The notes under the pieces: generated by a model
Told to the model about the DNA's origin: nothing
The model's database searches: none
What the model saw: the letters and a program-made list of their open reading frames with translations, nothing else
Program-made: the position numbers and the translations under genes
Sequence record: PZ445526.1
From: a phage
Reading direction: 5' to 3' (one strand)
Length of the DNA: 64,000 nucleotides
Part shown: positions 2,525-63,810 of the stretch, piece after piece
Position numbering within the stretch: the stretch's first letter is position 1
How the letters are laid out: each line of letters starts with the position of its first letter

Positions 2525-3160
2525 TCATAGTTCAGATGCTACAGTGATTACAGCTTCAATGTTTTCTACTGAGCGTTTAATGTCAAGATACACATTACCG
2601 TTTTTAGCGATTTTACATGACATTCCGATGTCAGTAAATTTCTGAATATGATGTTCCATCATTTTGTATCCAAAAATTCGCATATTTCCATTGTTGTTAA
2701 TTTCAAAATTACGAATTCCGTGAGTGCGTTTTTCTAAAATAGCGAGATAGTTACTGCGATAAGTTTCAACCTTTTTAAGAACAAATCCATTTTCATCTAA
2801 AAGTTTTAACATGAAGTCTTTATCTTCTTCCATATCAGAAGTAATCTCACGAGCTTTACGAGTTGCTCGTTTTTTCAGCAGTTCCGGAGCATTTTCTTGT
2901 GCGTATAAAGTTGCTGCATTTGAAATAATATCCTGAGCTTCACCAGTAATGATTAATCCATCACCAGATTTCTCCACCAGGCCTTTTTTAATCAATACCC
3001 CAATATTACTATTAACTACTGCGTTACCTAAATCTGGATGCACCTCACGAACTTCTGCAGCTGTAATGAAATCTTTCTTAGCAATGGTAATTAAAATCGC
3101 AGCAGTTTTTTCATTCAGAACATCGTTAGAAGCTTTGATGATGTAAGTTACTTTAGACAT
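2525..3160 (-). CDS. motA: middle-transcription activator MotA
   Basis: 211 aa, MSKVTYIIKASNDVLNEKTAAILITIAKKDF...; matches remembered T4 MotA length and sequence; early promoter 3202-3231 upstream. Confidence 0.9.
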   Translation of the reverse strand: MSKVTYIIKASNDVLNEKTAAILITIAKKDFITAAEVREVHPDLGNAVVNSNIGVLIKKGLVEKSGDGLIITGEAQDIISNAATLYAQENAPELLKKRATRKAREITSDMEEDKDFMLKLLDENGFVLKKVETYRSNYLAILEKRTHGIRNFEINNNGNMRIFGYKMMEHHIQKFTDIGMSCKIAKNGNVYLDIKRSVENIEAVITVASEL

Positions 3161-3437: not shown

Positions 3438-4762
3438 TTGATTTCCTCTAAATCTTTGGTGTATTCTGTAACTACATCAGTAGTTTTCCAATATTCGTTT
3501 TCTTCTTTTTTAGCTTTAGCTTCTTCGGCAAGTTTCTTTGCTTCATCAGAAGTCATGTGAAAAATATTCATTCCAACTAGTTTATCAACATAAGAAGAAT
3601 ACATATCGATTTTCGAAAGTTCTTCGGTCAGTTCTTTACGAGTTTTACCCTGCACAATGATTTCACCTGAAATTACTTTCTTAATGAAATGTGCCTTGGC
3701 AAAGGCTAAACGAAAAGCTGATTCAGTTTCTTTAATTTTGTTATCAATTCGTTTTTGAACATAAGTTTTACGAACTTCAACAAAGTCTTTAATTAAATCA
3801 ACTACGTTATCGTAAACTTGTAGTTTTCCTTTCTCATTAATAACCGTAATATTCTGAGAACGACGCTCAATCAACCCGAAGTCTTTCATAATTTTTGCAT
3901 GGCGTTCTTCTTCGTTATCGCTCAAAGAATATTCTTTGCGGAATTTAACTTTGAATCCAAAACCGTGCTCACCACAAGCATCATCCCATGTAATGAAGCC
4001 TTTATCTTCAAGTGGGTCTAAGATTTTACTCACATAAGTTTCACGATCATACTTATACGGAATCTCAGTGATATTCATTTGAGTTCGTGAAGTAAACTTG
4101 TACGTTCCACGAATTTCATATTGACCGTCAATCTCAACGACTTCACCACGAAATTCTGGGAATTCTACCTTCGGTTTAGTTACTTTCTTTCCTTGAAGAG
4201 CTTGCAGTACAGCTTTCTTGACAGAAGAAACACTATGAGGAAGAATGTAAGTTGCATAACCAGTTGCAATACCGGAAACGCCATTAAGAAGAACAGTAGG
4301 AATAATAGGCAAATAGAAAGCAGGCGGAATGTGTTCTTTATCTTGATGTACCGGAGCATATTCAGTATCTTTATATACGTTATAGAAATTTTTACTTACA
4401 CGAGCAAAAATATAACGACTTGCCGCTGCTTTTTGAACGGTACGAGAACCGAAGTTTCCTTGACCATCTAACAGAGGAAAGTTATTATTCCAAGTGTTAG
4501 CCATCAAAGCTCCCGCATCTTGCGCAGAGTTTTCGCCATGGTGATATCCAAGGTCCGCTACACCACCTGCGATAGAAGCTAGCTTATGAAACTTATCTTT
4601 ATTTCCTCGTGCCAAATCAAGAGCTCGAGCAATAACAAATCGTTGAACTGGCTTAAATCCATCAATCATATTTGGGATAGCACGATTTTCAACCGTGTAC
4701 ATAGCATAAGCCAATGCTTCATTATCAATGATACTTTTTAAATCGCGATTATTCAGTTGCAT
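3434..4762 (-). CDS. 52: DNA topoisomerase II medium subunit gp52 (GyrA-like)
   Basis: 442 aa, MQLNNRDLKSIIDNEALAYAMYTVENRAIPNMIDGFKPVQR...; matches remembered T4 gp52 length and N-terminus. Confidence 0.95.
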   Translation of the reverse strand: MQLNNRDLKSIIDNEALAYAMYTVENRAIPNMIDGFKPVQRFVIARALDLARGNKDKFHKLASIAGGVADLGYHHGENSAQDAGALMANTWNNNFPLLDGQGNFGSRTVQKAAASRYIFARVSKNFYNVYKDTEYAPVHQDKEHIPPAFYLPIIPTVLLNGVSGIATGYATYILPHSVSSVKKAVLQALQGKKVTKPKVEFPEFRGEVVEIDGQYEIRGTYKFTSRTQMNITEIPYKYDRETYVSKILDPLEDKGFITWDDACGEHGFGFKVKFRKEYSLSDNEEERHAKIMKDFGLIERRSQNITVINEKGKLQVYDNVVDLIKDFVEVRKTYVQKRIDNKIKETESAFRLAFAKAHFIKKVISGEIIVQGKTRKELTEELSKIDMYSSYVDKLVGMNIFHMTSDEAKKLAEEAKAKKEENEYWKTTDVVTEYTKDLEEIK

Positions 4763-56166: not shown

Positions 56167-57072
56167 TTAAGATTTAAGTAAATCAACAATTTTAATTAAT
56201 TTTTCACGTTCAGATTTAGCTTTACTACTCAATCCGGATAGTCTAAAGATTTCATCGTCATATTGTTGAATAGAAATATTCAGCTCTTCAATTTGCTTAT
56301 TAAAATAATCAATTTGTTCAGAATGTTTTTCGTTACTACGAACTGGTACATGGTTTGTAGGCAATTTAGTTAAACTGGATTCATCCGGGCGATAAATTAA
56401 AATACAACTTGAACCAATCGGACATTTAGCACCAGACACATATTCTAATGTTCCAGCTTCTTTTAAAATTTCAAAAGCTAAACAGAGATGATGACCCATA
56501 TTGGCATAATCTGTAGAGTGAGCTCTGACGTAATAATCATCTCCACGAGTGCTAAATTTAAAGCATTTAAGGTCTTCTGTATTATTAGTTTTAAAAATCA
56601 TTTGTTTATCTAGACCTTTAGCCAATCGAGCGCCTAATGCTAATAATCGTCGTTGATTTTCCCACAAATCCGCAATCATTTGATCGAATGATAATTTCGG
56701 CATTAGTCGGCCATAAAGGTCATATCCTTTATTATAATTGCGAAGGATTTCACTCGCATTAATGCGAGACAACGCTCCAATTTTATTAAGGGCTTTCATG
56801 ATGCGATTAGATAAACTCATTCCAGACCCGTTTGTTCGCTGTAAATGTTTTTCTAATCCAAATCCAATATCAACTTTAAATTTATCTAAAATTTTGGCAT
56901 GAACGTCTCTGTCAATAACATTCAAATCCAAAGTTGGGTTAAATCTATGAAAAAATTTATCTGGCTCTCCACGACGAAATACAGTCCATTCATTCATCAT
57001 TTTTTTATTAACTAAAGATTTAATTACTGCATTGACATTATTAATTACTACTGACATATTTTCCTCACTCAA
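56167..57072 (-). CDS. coiled-coil family protein D (301 aa)
   Basis: ORF track; similar length and C-terminal coiled coil. Confidence 0.55.
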   Translation of the reverse strand: MSEENMSVVINNVNAVIKSLVNKKMMNEWTVFRRGEPDKFFHRFNPTLDLNVIDRDVHAKILDKFKVDIGFGLEKHLQRTNGSGMSLSNRIMKALNKIGALSRINASEILRNYNKGYDLYGRLMPKLSFDQMIADLWENQRRLLALGARLAKGLDKQMIFKTNNTEDLKCFKFSTRGDDYYVRAHSTDYANMGHHLCLAFEILKEAGTLEYVSGAKCPIGSSCILIYRPDESSLTKLPTNHVPVRSNEKHSEQIDYFNKQIEELNISIQQYDDEIFRLSGLSSKAKSEREKLIKIVDLLKS

Positions 57073-57466
57073 TTTTACTAATTACGCGGAATAAGATTGA
57101 ACAGACTATATAAGTACCACATATAGATTGAACTAATGCCATTCCAAAGAACCAAACAATATTATCAAACCATGTCTGTTTTACGTCGAAAGGACGTAAA
57201 CTTACAGTAATATTATCACCTTTTTCTATTGAAGAATACATCTCTGGTGAAATATATTCACTAAATCTATAACCGTCTTTGAGTTCATATACAGCAATAA
57301 ACGATAAACTAGACCCCTTTCCTTGAGTTCCTGTAAGGGTATTAACTACAGTAACATCATAATCTTTATAATGCATATAATCATTAATTGCGTAATAACC
57401 ATATGCAATTACTATACATAAACAACATATCAATAAATTCAATCTTTTAATTATCAACTGTTTCAT
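57065..57466 (-). CDS. hypothetical membrane protein (133 aa)
   Basis: ORF track; hydrophobic helices at both ends. Confidence 0.55.
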   Translation of the reverse strand: MKQLIIKRLNLLICCLCIVIAYGYYAINDYMHYKDYDVTVVNTLTGTQGKGSSLSFIAVYELKDGYRFSEYISPEMYSSIEKGDNITVSLRPFDVKQTWFDNIVWFFGMALVQSICGTYIVCSILFRVISKIE

Positions 57467-58077: not shown

Positions 58078-58107
58078 ATAGTACCACAGAGGAACGGTCT
58101 TGTAAAC
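58078..58107 (-). promoter_or_regulatory. early promoter cassette
   Basis: GTTTAC-N18-TACTAT, TGG-extended; near-identical to 6341-6370. Confidence 0.6.
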
Positions 58108-58513: not shown

Positions 58514-59482
58514 TTATTTCAGAAGAGTAACCTCAGCGATTTCTTCCCAACCGTTTTTGTCGGTCATAATAAAGTCAGCAAGATAAAGAGCAGTACGCAG
58601 TGAAACATTGCGTAAACGATTAACATTGACTTTCATCCATGATAATGCTTTATAAGTTTCTTCATCAGAAAGACCGCGCTTTTGCATCATGTCGGTTGAA
58701 AGAATAACATCTTCAACCCTGACCATAATTTCTTCATTAGTGTGAACACCCAAATCCAAATAAACTGAGCGGGACACTAATGCTTGTAAATGTGGAGCAA
58801 GTTTAGTACCACGGTCTAATTCGCGGTCAATGTCAACGTTTGTGATAAAAACAATCGTTCCTTTAAATTCAAACTCACGCTCAATGCCTTTTTCTTCTAA
58901 GTAAGAAGATGCAGTGCTCCAGCAGACTTTACGGGTCTCTCCAGTGTCCAGAGCAGCTTTCAGAAGATTAAGAATGTCCATATCAGAGAAAACATCCACA
59001 TCATCAATCAAAAGGACAGAATTCTCTTCACGATTATTCCAAAGCTGTTCATAAAGACCAATACCAGAGATTTTACCATTAATGCTTTTATATTCAATGT
59101 ATCCAATATCATTTGCTTTATTTAAAGCTTTATCTAAAGAATACGTTTTACCAATACCCGCCGCACCAGAGATAATTAATGAACGAATGTTTCCGTTAAT
59201 AATACCATTCGTCATCATTCCCATAACATTAAATCTTTTATTAATGCGGGTTTTCATATCTTCATATGATTCTTTAACTTCTTCAACTTTTACACCATCA
59301 TATGAAATGTCTGATTTGTAAACCCAAACACCGCGACGTTTACCGTCAATTTCAACAAAAACTTTACCATCTCCTTGTGCATCTACCGGAGCATTATCTG
59401 GGAACCATTCACCTAAGAGCTCAAAAGTTCCAGAGATTTCTTTACCGAAGTAGATACCCTTATTGATAGTTACAGTTTTCAT
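58514..59482 (-). CDS. AAA+/P-loop ATPase (322 aa)
   Basis: Walker A GAAGIGKT, Walker B LLIDDVD, sensor-1-like FITN; trimmed to ATG behind leader; early promoter 59517-59546. Confidence 0.6.
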   Translation of the reverse strand: MKTVTINKGIYFGKEISGTFELLGEWFPDNAPVDAQGDGKVFVEIDGKRRGVWVYKSDISYDGVKVEEVKESYEDMKTRINKRFNVMGMMTNGIINGNIRSLIISGAAGIGKTYSLDKALNKANDIGYIEYKSINGKISGIGLYEQLWNNREENSVLLIDDVDVFSDMDILNLLKAALDTGETRKVCWSTASSYLEEKGIEREFEFKGTIVFITNVDIDRELDRGTKLAPHLQALVSRSVYLDLGVHTNEEIMVRVEDVILSTDMMQKRGLSDEETYKALSWMKVNVNRLRNVSLRTALYLADFIMTDKNGWEEIAEVTLLK

Positions 59483-59516
59483 TTTATTCTCCAAATCCGT
59501 ATCAGTTGATAGTTGT

Positions 59517-59546
59517 ATAGTACCATAAAGCTTTATGCTTGTAAAC
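59517..59546 (-). promoter_or_regulatory. early promoter for AAA+ ATPase gene
   Basis: GTTTAC-N18-TACTAT, TGG-extended; directly after terminator 59566-59593. Confidence 0.6.
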
Positions 59547-59565
59547 CGTTTTGTGAAAAAATTTT

Positions 59566-59593
59566 GAAATAAAAAGGGAGCCCGAAGGCTCCC
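59566..59593 (-). terminator. rho-independent terminator after nucleotidyltransferase gene
   Basis: GGGAGCC-UUCG-GGCUCCC followed by UUUUUAUUU. Confidence 0.6.
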
Positions 59594-59595
59594 TA

Positions 59596-60609
59596 TCATT
59601 TATAATAACTTCGGTGGTTTTCAAGATAGACCTTCTCAAGGAAGTCATCCCAGAAACCCATGTCTACTTTTTGCTGCATACCGTTCTTAGAAGCTTCAGT
59701 AGATGCTGCTTCTACTTGATCGACCACATCTTCCAAAAACTCTTGAACTGTTTTAAATGGATGTTTACCCAACTTCACGTCGAGAATAAATGGAGCATCT
59801 TGGAGTGGATAAACCAAGTCACCAGTTTTGTAAATTTCCAATAGTTGAAGTCCACCACGACAAGCATGGCTCAGAGCTTTCCAGTCAATACCTTCATTGG
59901 CTTCGGCCTTACGAGCACGTTCACCGTATTCAGCATCTAATTTGTTCAGTGACTGCTTAAGCTCAATAAGAGAAAGCGTTGTCTGATATTTACGACCCAA
60001 CACAGTGTAGAACGTTTGTGGGCCTGTTTTCTCATGATTATGGAACACCCATTCACAGAATTCGTTTTCTGGAAGACGATGCTTAATATCTTCAACTTTA
60101 GTACGACGCTGCTTAATGGAACCGTCTTCTTGGTAATCAACCCATTGCTCAGGGATTTGATTAACTACTTTCAATACATCGCGTAATGCAGCCAAACGAG
60201 AACCCTTGACACCGTATTTAGAAGCTTGCTTGCGAACATATCCTAAATAGGATTTCATGTTAGTCGTATAAAAACGAGAACGGTTGTCTTGAATAAACTT
60301 CCACACATCAGGCAAATCAGATTTAACCACTAGTTCAGGTGGAGTGTGAAGCATATCCAATGCTACAGTTTCACCATCTGCTGCTAATTTAAAGAAATAT
60401 TTAAGACTGTATAGTTCATGGTCAATATCATCTTTAGTGTTTTTAGATGATGTGTTGTTAGTGTTTTTACTCATGTGCTCTTTAACATTTCCAATAAGAA
60501 TATCACGAGCAGGAGGAACAAAGATTTCTTTAAAATCTACATCAGATTCTAGAGTAGAAGTTCCATAAAGATGACTACCAAAATAGCTTTTCATTACTGT
60601 TTTCATCAT
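59596..60609 (-). CDS. Pol-beta superfamily nucleotidyltransferase-like protein (337 aa)
   Basis: N-terminal signature YFGSHLYGTSTLESDVDF (G-S ... D-x-D) with third acidic residue in VALDMLH. Confidence 0.6.
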   Translation of the reverse strand: MMKTVMKSYFGSHLYGTSTLESDVDFKEIFVPPARDILIGNVKEHMSKNTNNTSSKNTKDDIDHELYSLKYFFKLAADGETVALDMLHTPPELVVKSDLPDVWKFIQDNRSRFYTTNMKSYLGYVRKQASKYGVKGSRLAALRDVLKVVNQIPEQWVDYQEDGSIKQRRTKVEDIKHRLPENEFCEWVFHNHEKTGPQTFYTVLGRKYQTTLSLIELKQSLNKLDAEYGERARKAEANEGIDWKALSHACRGGLQLLEIYKTGDLVYPLQDAPFILDVKLGKHPFKTVQEFLEDVVDQVEAASTEASKNGMQQKVDMGFWDDFLEKVYLENHRSYYK

Positions 60610-61067
60610 TCAGCCTTATATTCAATAACAGGACATACTTTAGCTTTACGAGCTTTTAAAAATTCAACGATAACCGATTTCTTGGGTTGAATAGGAGGTA
60701 AACCTTTATACGCCCTATCAATATTTTCTACGTGTAAAGCATAATCCTTTTTCCATTTATAATCTTTATATTTTTCACGCAAATGTGCAGGAATAACAAA
60801 TGAACCGATAATAAGTAAAACAACCAAAAGCGCAAGTATAAATGCTGATGGAAGCAAAGTCCATAAACTACCAAAAATAATCCAACGCTGTAGGCTTTCT
60901 GCACAAATAATTGTTAGCCCTACGAGTATAGCACATCCAAAAATAGAAACGAAAAATGTAGGAATGGCAATAGACCAAAAATATGCGCATAGTGTCTTAG
61001 GTCGTTGCCATTCATCGTTAAACAATTTGAATAATTTATAGTGCCAAGAGTTTTCATTAATAATCAT
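60606..61067 (-). CDS. hypothetical membrane protein (153 aa)
   Basis: ORF track; about three hydrophobic helices. Confidence 0.55.
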   Translation of the reverse strand: MIINENSWHYKLFKLFNDEWQRPKTLCAYFWSIAIPTFFVSIFGCAILVGLTIICAESLQRWIIFGSLWTLLPSAFILALLVVLLIIGSFVIPAHLREKYKDYKWKKDYALHVENIDRAYKGLPPIQPKKSVIVEFLKARKAKVCPVIEYKAE

Positions 61068-61069
61068 AA

Positions 61070-61591
61070 TTATCCTTTCATTGAAGGCGTAACGGTTGTT
61101 AAATACTTAATCATAGCTTCAGCTTCTGATTTTGATAATGAAATTTCTCCATTGTTTTGACGAATAGAAATAAAATCCGGATGACGGTCACCACCAGCTT
61201 TTAAAACACACATATAAGTATCAACTTCGCCTTCAATATTTGAAATGATTGAAGCAGTTCCACATGAATGCGGTTTTTGATAAATCAATACAGCTTTTCT
61301 TCCGCCATTTGACTGCTCATAGGCTTTTAATACATCAAACAAATCAGTTCTTTTATCAATAGCTAAAATGTTATTTTCATCTTCAATGTTAAATCCTTCG
61401 GATACTTCATAAAGCGTTACCCATAAATCACCAATGTCAATAACAGCATTTACTTTTCCACGGCTTTCAAGGGTATGACAAATTTTCTTGATTTCGTCAT
61501 AACTCATTTTAATAATATCATCTCCTTGAATAAGGAAGATGTCATTTTTAAATTCAACACGAATTAAACCGCTTCCACTTGAAATAAACAT
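61070..61591 (-). CDS. hypothetical protein (173 aa), tandem paralog E
   Basis: Shares GFNIEDEN and ...EAEAMIKYLTTVTPSM motifs with 61598..62143. Confidence 0.55.
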   Translation of the reverse strand: MFISSGSGLIRVEFKNDIFLIQGDDIIKMSYDEIKKICHTLESRGKVNAVIDIGDLWVTLYEVSEGFNIEDENNILAIDKRTDLFDVLKAYEQSNGGRKAVLIYQKPHSCGTASIISNIEGEVDTYMCVLKAGGDRHPDFISIRQNNGEISLSKSEAEAMIKYLTTVTPSMKG

Positions 61592-61597
61592 ATTTCC

Positions 61598-62143
61598 TCA
61601 CTTTGAAATCATAGTTGGAATAACAGAATCAAGATAAGTCTTTAGCGCAATAGCTTCGTCTTTGGTAAATGTGACAATATGTGCTCGAAAATCATCAATT
61701 TGACGAATAGTTAAGACATCTCCATCTTCATAACATTTTGATACGTTTAAAACAGTTTCATCATTCTGATCGCAAGCGTTAGTAATAATAGCATTGCAAT
61801 TTTTAAGCCATTTTAAACTATGTTTTCTTTCATTAGAATAATAAAAATATTTAATCTTAGTTATAAAATTATCCCAATTATTAATTGATAAGCATATTGA
61901 CTCGCTTTCAATATTAAATCCTGGGCATAAAGAATAAAAATGAATTTTATGCTCATCATTAATGCTTACAATTTTATCAGTATAAGAATTTTCAATTTGG
62001 GTTAAATGAATAATTTCGTTAGGCGTAAAATATAACATATCGTCTTCTTGTGTCAAACGATACATATTATTTACTTTTTCTATAGCCAATTCACCAAAAA
62101 GTGAACTAACTTCTAATACTAATCGTTTCGCCTCGCCCATCAT
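61598..62143 (-). CDS. hypothetical protein (181 aa), tandem paralog F
   Basis: Shares GFNIESES and ...DEAIALKTYLDSVIPTM motifs with 61070..61591; SD GAGGAG. Confidence 0.55.
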   Translation of the reverse strand: MMGEAKRLVLEVSSLFGELAIEKVNNMYRLTQEDDMLYFTPNEIIHLTQIENSYTDKIVSINDEHKIHFYSLCPGFNIESESICLSINNWDNFITKIKYFYYSNERKHSLKWLKNCNAIITNACDQNDETVLNVSKCYEDGDVLTIRQIDDFRAHIVTFTKDEAIALKTYLDSVIPTMISK

Positions 62144-62247
62144 TACATACTCCTCTGAATCATATCAATAATGTTGTTCACCAGATTATAAGTAAACATT
62201 GGGTAATTATATTGAATCATCACATACACAACAAACAAAACTTTCAT
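62143..62247 (-). CDS. 34-aa leader micro-ORF (not in ORF track)
   Basis: ATG with strong SD AAGGAGAAGAGA just downstream of promoter 62276-62305; stop overlaps next ATG (TAATG). Confidence 0.3.
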   Translation of the reverse strand: MKVLFVVYVMIQYNYPMFTYNLVNNIIDMIQRSM

Positions 62248-62275
62248 TCTCTTCTCCTTGGCAGTTGACAAGATT

Positions 62276-62305
62276 ACTATACCATAACCTTGCCAACTTG
62301 TAAAC
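62276..62305 (-). promoter_or_regulatory. early promoter cassette
   Basis: GTTTAC-N18-TATAGT, TGG-extended. Confidence 0.55.
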
Positions 62306-62470
62306 CATTAAATGACGTTTTCGATAAAATTCTGAAGCTTTGTGTGAGCATCAACCATGATTTTCATTTCTTCTTTGGCGAAAGCTATACCTCTTTCCCG
62401 AGAAGAACATTCATAGTCAGAAACTGCATTAGCATATTCTTCAATTAGCTTCATTAAAAACATCTGCTTT

Positions 62471-62665
62471 TCAGTTTTCATTATTCCACCTAATCATTTC
62501 AAGATATTGAACTAACTTAGCTTTAGATTTATCCAAATCCTTTTTAGCTGCTTCTATACCGTCGTATGAATATCCTTCACAATGCTCAACTGCTAATTGA
62601 TATGAATCTATTTCAATATCACGTGCTAATTTAATGATTTTTTCAAACTGTTCACGTGTTAGCAT
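62471..62665 (-). CDS. hypothetical protein (64 aa)
   Basis: ORF track. Confidence 0.45.
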   Translation of the reverse strand: MLTREQFEKIIKLARDIEIDSYQLAVEHCEGYSYDGIEAAKKDLDKSKAKLVQYLEMIRWNNEN

Positions 62666-62667
62666 AA

Positions 62668-62886
62668 TTAAACTCTCGTATTATGATCGATAATTTCATC
62701 AAGAAACATATCTAACGCTTCTAAAGCATTATCAACTTTAGCTTCAAATTCTTCAATACCTGATAAGGCAAAGTTAATGCGTTCCTCATCTGCTTTACGA
62801 ATTAAAGCTACCAATTCCTTAATTTTATCCGCTTGTTCGATACTAATCATTATTCCACCACATATGAAAGAGAGAATATTGCACAC
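62668..62886 (-). CDS. hypothetical protein (72 aa)
   Basis: ORF track. Confidence 0.45.
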
Positions 62887-63038
62887 GCCATGTGAGTTGC
62901 AACTTCATCACACATATTATAACGTTTCTTGAGAAGTTCTACAAGTTCTTCACTAGTAACTTCATCCATGTCGACGAAAAAATCACCATTAATGATGACG
63001 TAGATATTTCCTTCTTGATTGAGTGCTTCAATTTTCAT
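62850..63038 (-). CDS. hypothetical acidic protein (62 aa)
   Basis: Track ORF trimmed to ATG with SD GAGGAGAA; upstream part is promoter/leader DNA. Confidence 0.45.
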
Positions 63039-63066
63039 GATGTTCTCCTCTTTATCCGATAGTTGT

Positions 63067-63096
63067 ATAGTACCACAGCTCAAACGGAAAGTAAAC
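63067..63096 (-). promoter_or_regulatory. early promoter cassette
   Basis: GTTTAC-N18-TACTAT, TGG-extended; directly after terminator 63104-63129. Confidence 0.6.
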
Positions 63097-63103
63097 CGGT
63101 AAA

Positions 63104-63129
63104 ATGAAAAAAGTCTCCCGAAGGAGACT
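63104..63129 (-). terminator. rho-independent terminator
   Basis: AGUCUCC-UUCG-GGAGACU followed by UUUUUUC. Confidence 0.6.
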
Positions 63130-63133
63130 AATG

Positions 63134-63520
63134 TTATTCGAGGGAAAGAAGATACTTACTCTGGTAAAACATTCCAGTAATATCATCTATCGTGCTTTGG
63201 ATGGCTGGAGGCATTTCTTTATAAATGCTGTTAGATTGGTCTAGTATGTGATCAATCATTTTAATTGTGTCGGTAGGAAGTTTACTGGCATCTGGAATTG
63301 AAGGCGTGTATTTTCTACCAGAATACCCCAAATATTGCTCACCAAATTTATCAATCAAATCTGGCAACTCGGAGAAAATAAAATCGTATGCTTTGTGTCT
63401 AGCATAACTTTTAGTTTCAAAATGCGCAGAATGAAAATAAGCTTGTGCAGCCATTAATAAACCTAAGTATTCATCTGCCTTTGAAGGTTTTCCACTTTGT
63501 GAAAAGTCGCTGAATTTCAT
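63134..63520 (-). CDS. hypothetical protein (128 aa)
   Basis: ORF track; immediately downstream of rI. Confidence 0.5.
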
Positions 63521-63810
63521 TCAGTCTCCAATTTAATTTTCATAATTCTAGCGTATGATTGTGCCATCTCCGCGCCTCGCTCTATACATTCAAAATCAGA
63601 AGAGCACGGGTCATTTTTATAGGTCGTTCTCATAAAACTATAGAATTGTTCAGACGATTCTACGCTTTTATTTTCAAAAAGCATATAAACGTGCCTAATA
63701 CCAGATTCCATAAATTTATCAAAATGAGGATCGACATTCGCTTCAATCGATGGAGATAAAACAAATGACAATCCTAGCATGGCAAATAGTGCCGTTGCTT
63801 TTAAGGCCAT
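63517..63810 (-). CDS. rI: lysis-inhibition regulator RI
   Basis: 97 aa, MALKATALFAMLGLSFVLSPSIEANVDPHF... matches remembered T4 RI; SD GGAGG. Confidence 0.8.
   Translation of the reverse strand: MALKATALFAMLGLSFVLSPSIEANVDPHFDKFMESGIRHVYMLFENKSVESSEQFYSFMRTTYKNDPCSSDFECIERGAEMAQSYARIMKIKLETE

Follow-up and report, generated by a model that had tools for sequence, protein, structure and literature searches.

A T4-type early operon with a conserved 34-codon gene, mobD.2, and an old tandem pair of MobD.1 paralogs

The phage sequence record PZ445526.1 was analyzed over a stretch of 64,000 nucleotides (nt), here called the window, in which positions 61070 to 62247 carry a tandem pair of related genes and, ahead of them, a 34-codon open reading frame (ORF), mobD.2, whose role as a gene or as a leader was in question. 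In a DNA comparison, the 1.9 kb around the pair was 98% identical to Escherichia phage teqskov and 90 to 98% identical to about 500 Tequatrovirus (T4-like) records, and by sequence the window is assigned to Tequatrovirus. All genes of the region lie on the minus strand. A gene map, based on the annotations of fPS-2, RB14, and T4, places mobD.2 at 62143-62247, mobD.1 (T4 Y05I; 181 amino acids [aa]) at 61598-62143, and a 173-aa MobD.1-family paralog of the RB32ORF097c type, named after the RB14/RB32 annotation, at 61070-61591. The early operon would start with an early promoter and continue with mobD.2, mobD.1, the 173-aa paralog, a 153-aa membrane ORF, nrdC.11, and nrdC.10. The locus forms the promoter-proximal end of an ordinary early operon of the T4 type, and every ORF in it has already been annotated. 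Orthologs in the same order and behind the same early promoter are mobD.2 (NP_049712) and mobD.1 (NP_049711; UniProt Y05I_BPT4) of T4 and RB32ORF097c/RB14ORF98.

The early promoter that had been proposed just upstream of the 34-codon ORF was located by a consensus scan at 62305-62276 on the minus strand (score of 10/12). Its sequence, GTTTAC-N18-TATAGT, with a spacer ending in TGG and hence the TG of an extended -10 box, reads as a textbook T4 early (sigma-70) promoter. Matches to GTTTAC-N18-TAnnnT are oriented along the genes in 19 of 21 cases in the window, and nearly all of these sites have a TGGTA extended -10 box followed by a Shine-Dalgarno (SD) sequence and an ATG. Across 12 aligned sequences of Tequatrovirus and Mosigvirus, GTTTAC is unchanged and the -10 box TATAGT is kept in 11, with diverging flanks. 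A literature search found no T4 transcription start site dataset. The "predicted early promoter" annotated in fPS-2 (record positions 56183-56212) was dismissed as support, since it maps inside mobD.2 (window positions 62168-62197) and not to the upstream site.

The gene mobD.2 extends from the ATG at 62247 to the TAA at 62145-62143 and encodes the peptide MKVLFVVYVMIQYNYPMFTYNLVNNIIDMIQRSM, including the stretch VLFVVYVMIQYNYPMFTYNLVNNIIDMIQR. The strong SD sequence previously noted, AAGGAG, is located 6 nt before the ATG (62254-62259, minus strand), and its GGAG is unchanged in the 12-sequence alignment. The gene is annotated in T4, RB14, T2, and Sf22; its product is 94% identical to MobD.2 of T4 and matches phrog_3515 over the full length (E value of 2.8e-22). 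RB69 and other Mosigvirus genomes contain a homolog with about 71% DNA identity. Between Tequatrovirus and Mosigvirus, synonymous sites are saturated (proportion of synonymous differences pS, 0.70 to 0.78) at a proportion of nonsynonymous differences (pN) of 0.16 to 0.19, corresponding to a dN/dS ratio of 0.07 to 0.08. The reading frame, the start codon, and the SD sequence are conserved, and the two other frames are full of stop codons. These patterns indicate strong purifying selection on the MobD.2 peptide. The core QYNYPMFTYN is unchanged across both genera, and the synonymous differences found within it argue for a constraint that acts at the level of the peptide rather than the DNA.

With respect to its wider distribution, a tblastn search with mobD.2 matched 844 phage records, among them phages of Klebsiella, Enterobacter, and Aeromonas. 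Direct reading of the homologous ORFs in RB69, Nispero, PG7, and PS49 verified the gene in four genera, with homologs that share the same core at 42 to 68% identity. The homolog of Nispero (Jiaodavirus) is MKNILIILYMVVQYQYPMFTYNFVNDLLDLIIASLK and that of PG7 (Karamvirus) is MRTVFVLLYLFVQYHNPLFTYNLVNGIMDLVQRSL, from which PS49 differs by one residue. MobD.2 is 34 to 36 aa long throughout, with the core pattern QY-x-x-P-(M/L)-FTYN-x-VN. Homologs that lack an annotation were found in RB69 (AY303349; locus positions 2210-2320), Solly (locus positions 2207-2311), and fPS-2 (locus positions 4044-4148). A transmembrane helix was considered for MobD.2 and rejected, the best 19-residue Kyte-Doolittle mean of 1.02 indicating no clear transmembrane segment, and PADLOC gave no match for the peptide.

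A skeptical reader might regard mobD.2 as a chance ORF in a 5' untranslated region and its annotation as a gene-calling artifact. The gene has only 34 codons, and it was omitted from several annotations (RB69, fPS-2, and Solly). In a supplement covering the proteomics of T4 (PMC9697503), mobD.2 RNA is listed as early and the peptide as not detected, and the supplement of a dCas13d knock-down study (PMC11879866) lists no fitness effect for mobD.2 in T4 grown on a laboratory host. However, a chance ORF would hardly show a dN/dS ratio of about 0.07 at saturated synonymous sites, a conserved frame, start, and SD sequence next to stop-filled alternative frames, and homologs with the same core in four genera, so that we consider this explanation extremely improbable. 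The comparison instead identifies mobD.2 as a putative micro-protein gene whose conservation is due to the peptide itself and which, in Tequatrovirus and Mosigvirus, happens to be the promoter-proximal cistron.

The junction of mobD.2 and mobD.1 has the layout described in the original prediction: the stop codon overlaps the mobD.1 start as TAATG (62143-62147), the last A of the TAA doubling as that of the mobD.1 ATG (minus strand, ...AGTATGTAATGATG...), and one base is likewise shared at this junction in T4. On the minus strand, the SD sequence of mobD.1, GAGGAG (62150-62155), lies within the last codons of mobD.2, and that of the 173-aa paralog, GAGGAA (61594-61599), overlaps the mobD.1 stop codon TGA (61598-61600). 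Further overlaps in the window comprise 4 nt each for nrdC.10/nrdC.11, nrdC.11/153-aa ORF, and rI.-1/rI and 11 nt for mobD.2a/mobD.3. In the fPS-2, RB14, and T4 records, mobD.4 and mobD.5 are annotated with a 1-nt overlap, and in a 9-kb region of T4, 8 of 20 gene junctions overlap. Since overlaps are the norm in this operon and the SD sequence of the paralog reaches into the mobD.1 stop codon, translational coupling from mobD.2 to mobD.1, one of the two arrangements that had been suggested, is plausible but generic. The TAATG overlap would represent the usual gene packing of T4, and some coupling may occur, though mobD.1 has a strong SD sequence of its own. The likeness to T4 early operons with coupled, overlapping cistrons lies in the TAATG and ATGA overlaps that are found throughout this operon.

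The second suggestion, a leader-peptide regulatory arrangement, is not supported. It would make MobD.2 a cis-acting leader or arrest peptide that controls mobD.1 and its paralog by attenuation or by a ribosome-dependent exposure of the mobD.1 start, and it draws on the position of mobD.2 in the window, directly after the promoter, with a strong SD sequence and an overlap with the mobD.1 start. Short ORFs with a strong SD sequence between promoter and structural gene are also typical of the trpL and hisL attenuators and of the arrest peptides SecM, TnaC, and ErmCL, and arrest peptides are likewise conserved at the amino acid level. Furthermore, a weak hairpin pairs the AUGAUG start of mobD.1 with mobD.2 codons in the window (-9.2 kcal/mol) and in T4 (-8.2 kcal/mol). 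However, the hairpin is absent from fPS-2, T2, CHD2BS1, Sf22, RB14, and RB69-type sequences and was therefore rejected as a conserved SD-masking feature of mobD.1, which has its own GAGGAG. No terminator-like site was found in or after mobD.2, an Rfam scan of positions 60500-63300 detected no element (one chance small nucleolar RNA match was below the threshold), and the translation of mobD.2 contains no regulatory codon run. In contrast to the classical leaders, mobD.2 thus has neither terminator/antiterminator alternatives nor regulatory codons.

The linkage of mobD.2 also differs from that of a leader, since the gene that follows it is not conserved. It directly precedes mobD.1 in the window, T4, and fPS-2; in T2 and CHD2BS1, mobD.1 either lies 2 nt further on or has a later start; and in RB14, Sf22, Solly, and RB69, the next gene is a 59- to 61-aa ORF of the DUF7438 family. 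The varying downstream gene implies that the promoter and mobD.2 behave as a module that is independent of mobD.1. A short ORF between the promoter and mobD.1 is accordingly present in the window, T4, and RB69-type phages but not in Jiaodavirus and Karamvirus. In Nispero, PG7, and PS49, the mobD.2 homolog is located mid-operon without a promoter of its own and overlaps the upstream stop codon (ATGA or TAATG) as well as the start of a downstream Zn-finger-like gene. Taken together, the annotated and selected gene, the exchange of its downstream neighbors, the mid-operon homologs, and the lack of a terminator, a codon run, and a conserved SD-masking hairpin make a leader function very improbable, if slightly less so than a chance ORF. 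More tentatively, the retention of MobD.2 in at least four genera of Tevenvirinae, whatever its neighbors, suggests an early peptide that may act in trans on a conserved host component. More generally, a promoter-proximal micro-ORF with an overlapping stop codon can be a real, selected gene, and comparative linkage and dN/dS analysis separate such a gene from a leader.

Should the locus contain a regulatory element, this is the promoter hairpin rather than the micro-ORF. Its stem of 15 bp, capped by a 6-nt loop, surrounds the -10 box (62263-62298, minus strand) in both the minimum free energy and the centroid structure, with a local z-score of -4.0, and its 3' end lies 3 nt before the SD sequence of mobD.2. 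Among 11 distinct sequences from Tequatrovirus and Mosigvirus, pairing is seen in 95% of the cells, compared with 24 to 65% in slid controls, and five pairs covary between the two genera, with changes on both sides. The G-U states are compatible only with the sense RNA strand, a sign that the structure forms in read-through RNA. Transcripts that begin at the 62305-62276 promoter lack the 5' arm, and the hairpin is possible only in read-through RNA from upstream. The T4 genes e, soc, and 49 and I-TevI have promoters within hairpins, so that the ribosome-binding site is masked in long transcripts and RNA started within the hairpin can be translated. The mobD.2 promoter resembles this device in that a conserved hairpin, which can form in read-through RNA only, holds the -10 box in its loop. 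In the classical cases, however, the 3' arm masks the SD sequence, whereas the hairpin at mobD.2 stops 3 nt upstream of it, and a translational effect, if any, is uncertain. About 7 of the 19 early promoter sites in the window are situated inside similarly strong hairpins (z-score of -3 or below). Those with an enclosed -10 box on the minus strand are at 58107, 27674, 16434, 15432, and 6370 (and 21405). The 3' arms at 58107, 16434, and 6370 base-pair with the SD sequence that follows (GGAGGAAC or GAGGA), and these three predicted hairpins would hide the ribosome-binding site in read-through transcripts only.

The two genes behind mobD.2 are indeed paralogs, as had been proposed from the shared motifs GFNIEDEN/GFNIESES and KYLTTVTPSM/TYLDSVIPTM, which were retrieved in the 173-aa and 181-aa proteins. 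A BLASTP alignment of the two spans 176 columns with 30% identity (E value of 6e-11). In the same order, the proteins match Pfam families PF24449 (T4_y05I_N; E values of 5e-34 and 5e-40; 117.2 and 136.6 bits versus a gathering cutoff of 24.9) and PF24448 (T4_y05I_C; E values of 8e-23 and 5e-21; 81.0 and 75.3 bits versus a cutoff of 27). Scores so far above the gathering cutoffs mean that the similarity is not due to chance. Both also match phrog_1502, and the C-terminal motif YLxSVIPTM is conserved in the MobD.1 family. The paralogy was already known, given the entry "similar to mobD.1" in the GenBank annotation of RB14/RB32 and the Pfam family itself. The literature on mobD.1, mobD.2, and Y05I yielded nothing beyond a mention of the mobD insertion site in a table.

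The position of the MobD.1 family in the early region of Tevenvirinae, between rI/tk and nrdC.11, is the same in T4, RB14, fPS-2, RB69, Dhakavirus FB, and Solly. When 1.84 billion representative proteins were searched with a profile, 27 members were retrieved at an E value of ≤0.001, a result that depicts the family as tiny and phage restricted. In a tblastn search, mobD.1 was found in 729 phage records (Tequatrovirus, Mosigvirus, and Dhakavirus), and the 173-aa paralog was found at ≥80% identity in 434 records, by name T4-like coliphages and relatives; the paralog loci that were checked all belong to Tequatrovirus. IMG/VR, queried for related loci with one protein, yielded no more than four close relatives. 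The paralog shares 23 to 32% identity with the aligned MobD.1 orthologs of the T4, RB69, and Dhakavirus types, whereas the T4 type of MobD.1 is 46 to 54% identical to the RB69 type and 36% identical to the Dhakavirus type. The paralog is therefore more distant from the MobD.1 orthologs than the T4 type is from the two other types, which indicates an old duplication; a recent duplication in situ is ruled out by the same values. The dN/dS ratios of 0.06 to 0.26 for the paralog and 0.16 to 0.48 for mobD.1 are indicative of purifying selection on both genes. A natural chimera, P0021 (6 contigs), joins the N-terminal part of mobD.1 to the C-terminal part of the 173-aa paralog, a structure that unequal recombination of the tandem copies could explain. 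The RB14 record (locus positions 3502-4061) has mobD.1 split by a frameshift, and in the T2 record (NC_054931; locus positions 1657-2757), both paralogs are broken into several frames, due to either pseudogenization or sequencing errors.

The 173-aa paralog is missing in T4, in which a gene for an HNH homing endonuclease, mobD (NC_000866, positions 56429-57208), occupies the slot of the 153-aa ORF and the paralog, and the RB14 record carries the note "replaces mobD." Since mobD fills exactly this slot, the two arrangements are alternative alleles among Tequatroviruses, and the window represents the RB32/teqskov type. With respect to T4 mobD.1, the supplement of PMC9697503 lists early RNA and early protein, and that of PMC11879866 lists no fitness effect of the dCas13d knock-down. 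PADLOC gave no match for either paralog.

The MobD.1 family gains a testable structural hypothesis from AlphaFold2 models, namely, an acidic three-repeat PUR/Whirly-like fold. The model of the 173-aa paralog is a confident one, with a predicted local distance difference test score (pLDDT) of 86.6; that of MobD.1 (pLDDT of 65) is partial, with a good N domain. Both models consist of three beta-beta-beta-beta-alpha units, two in the N domain and one in the C domain, and an hhalign comparison of repeats 1 and 3 gave a probability of 77% (E value of 2e-5). The C-terminal repeat also occurs in stand-alone phage proteins of 69 to 87 aa. Genes for such stand-alone C domains are present in the same operon of Jiaodavirus and Karamvirus, two to four genes behind the mobD.2 homolog and directly ahead of the 153-aa membrane ORF ortholog. 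The synteny of these genes suggests a fusion of single-repeat genes as the origin of the three-repeat proteins. Syntenic single-repeat relatives are, e.g., gp77 of the Klebsiella phage Nispero (locus positions 2168-2570) and PS49_103 of an Aeromonas phage (locus positions 2913-3158), and the neighboring Nispero gp78 (63 aa) has a similar "IVLKQGNDIIHLDTKQIDSLIKFL" motif.

The best structural neighbors of the MobD.1 models are Pur-alpha, MRP1/2, PBF-2, and StWhy2, which share the single-stranded DNA (ssDNA)- or RNA-binding PUR/Whirly fold. Two repeats would form an N-terminal PUR/Whirly-like domain, and the third would form a C-terminal module, which, by analogy with repeat III of Pur-alpha, probably dimerizes. 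Several searches call for caution about a PUR/Whirly-like fold: Foldseek returned nothing significant in the PDB, Pfam gave no match to PUR or Whirly at an E value of ≤0.1, and a profile search of the PDB sequences found nothing below an E value of 0.5. Sequence similarity of MobD.1 is accordingly not detectable to Pur-alpha (3k44, 5fgo, and 8chw), PBF-2 (1l3a), StWhy2 (3n1h), MRP1/MRP2 (2gia), or the SsgB-like protein 3cm1. Moreover, PUR/Whirly proteins are basic, whereas those of the MobD.1 family are acidic, with isoelectric points of 4.2 to 5.0, net charges of -7 to -22, and about -8 for the PUR-like N domains.

The structural neighborhood raises the question of whether the MobD.1 paralogs are regulators of transcription or RNA that bind single-stranded nucleic acids in the manner of PUR/Whirly proteins. 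All of the closest neighbors bind ssDNA or RNA, expression is early, and Pfam names PF24449/PF24448 "y05I-like putative transcription factor." Both ORFs fit both domains, and nothing structural sets them apart, but the Pfam label is a prediction that the acidity of the family counts against. The isoelectric points and the charge down to -22 across the whole family, N domains included, argue against ssDNA/RNA binding, a link to PUR or Whirly is missing at the sequence level, and SsgB-like proteins have the same fold and yet bind a protein. A role as nucleic acid-binding regulators thus appears doubtful, although clearly less remote than the leader function of mobD.2. From the strong acidity, we infer dispensable early accessory proteins that would bind a macromolecule of the host or the phage and would not act as classical DNA-binding transcription factors; the binding partner is most likely a protein. 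On the basis of the models, we favor an acidic PUR/Whirly-like scaffold that would dimerize via the C-terminal repeat and engage a protein partner. As a more speculative option, the tandem paralogs could form heterodimers via this repeat and mimic or inhibit a host nucleic acid-binding or defense protein.

Overall, an ordinary early operon with mobD.2 as a real gene and ancient MobD.1 paralogs, which would be accessory proteins with an acidic three-repeat fold, is quite likely the correct explanation of the locus. Its regulatory importance is small, since T4 early genes are packed in this way as a rule and all ORFs are already annotated. A much more tentative proposal, which in its entirety we would rate as rather unlikely, combines a functional trans-acting MobD.2 micro-protein with a MobD.1 family that represents a phage-specific acidic branch of the PUR/Whirly fold built by repeat fusion. 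Both a functional MobD.2 micro-protein and an acidic PUR/Whirly branch appear to be undescribed so far.

The cistron after the paralog is the 153-aa ORF (RB32ORF096c; 60606-61067), which encodes a basic membrane-type protein and matches phrog_944 "membrane protein"; a gene of the MobD.1 family precedes its orthologs in RB69, Dhakavirus, Jiaodavirus, and Karamvirus. It is followed by nrdC.11 (59596-60609) and nrdC.10 (58514-59599), both mapped by comparison with annotated relatives. The overlapping pair may encode a nucleotidyltransferase (nrdC.11; RlaP "RNA repair pathway DNA polymerase beta family," PF10127, E value of 1.6e-10) and an AAA/STAND-like NTPase (nrdC.10), the Pfam matches of the latter to AAA_14 and nSTAND3 being weak and below the cutoffs. 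On the other side of the promoter are mobD.2a, mobD.3, mobD.4, and mobD.5 (62308-63038), rI.-1 (63134-63520), and rI (63517-63810), all on the minus strand. The consecutive genes mobD.2a (62308-62481), mobD.3 (62471-62665), and mobD.4 (62668-62850) all match Pfam DUF7438 (PF24219) and thus form a second tandem paralog array, just upstream of the mobD.2 promoter. In RB14, Sf22, Solly, and RB69-type phages, mobD.2 is separated from mobD.1 by a fourth DUF7438 copy, which is tk.1-like and carries the wrong name "helicase loader."

Annotation is uneven in this region. While mobD.2 is often not annotated at all, mobD.x genes are widely mislabeled in RefSeq: mobD.1, mobD.4, mobD.5, and a 36-aa mobD.2 homolog are often called [quoted passage not shown] e.g., in NC_000866 (mobD.4), NC_054934, and Nispero (gp80). 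RefSeq furthermore lists rI.-1 as "starvation-inducible transcriptional regulator" and nrdC.10 and nrdC.11 as "thioredoxin," and all of these labels look like name-driven annotation errors.

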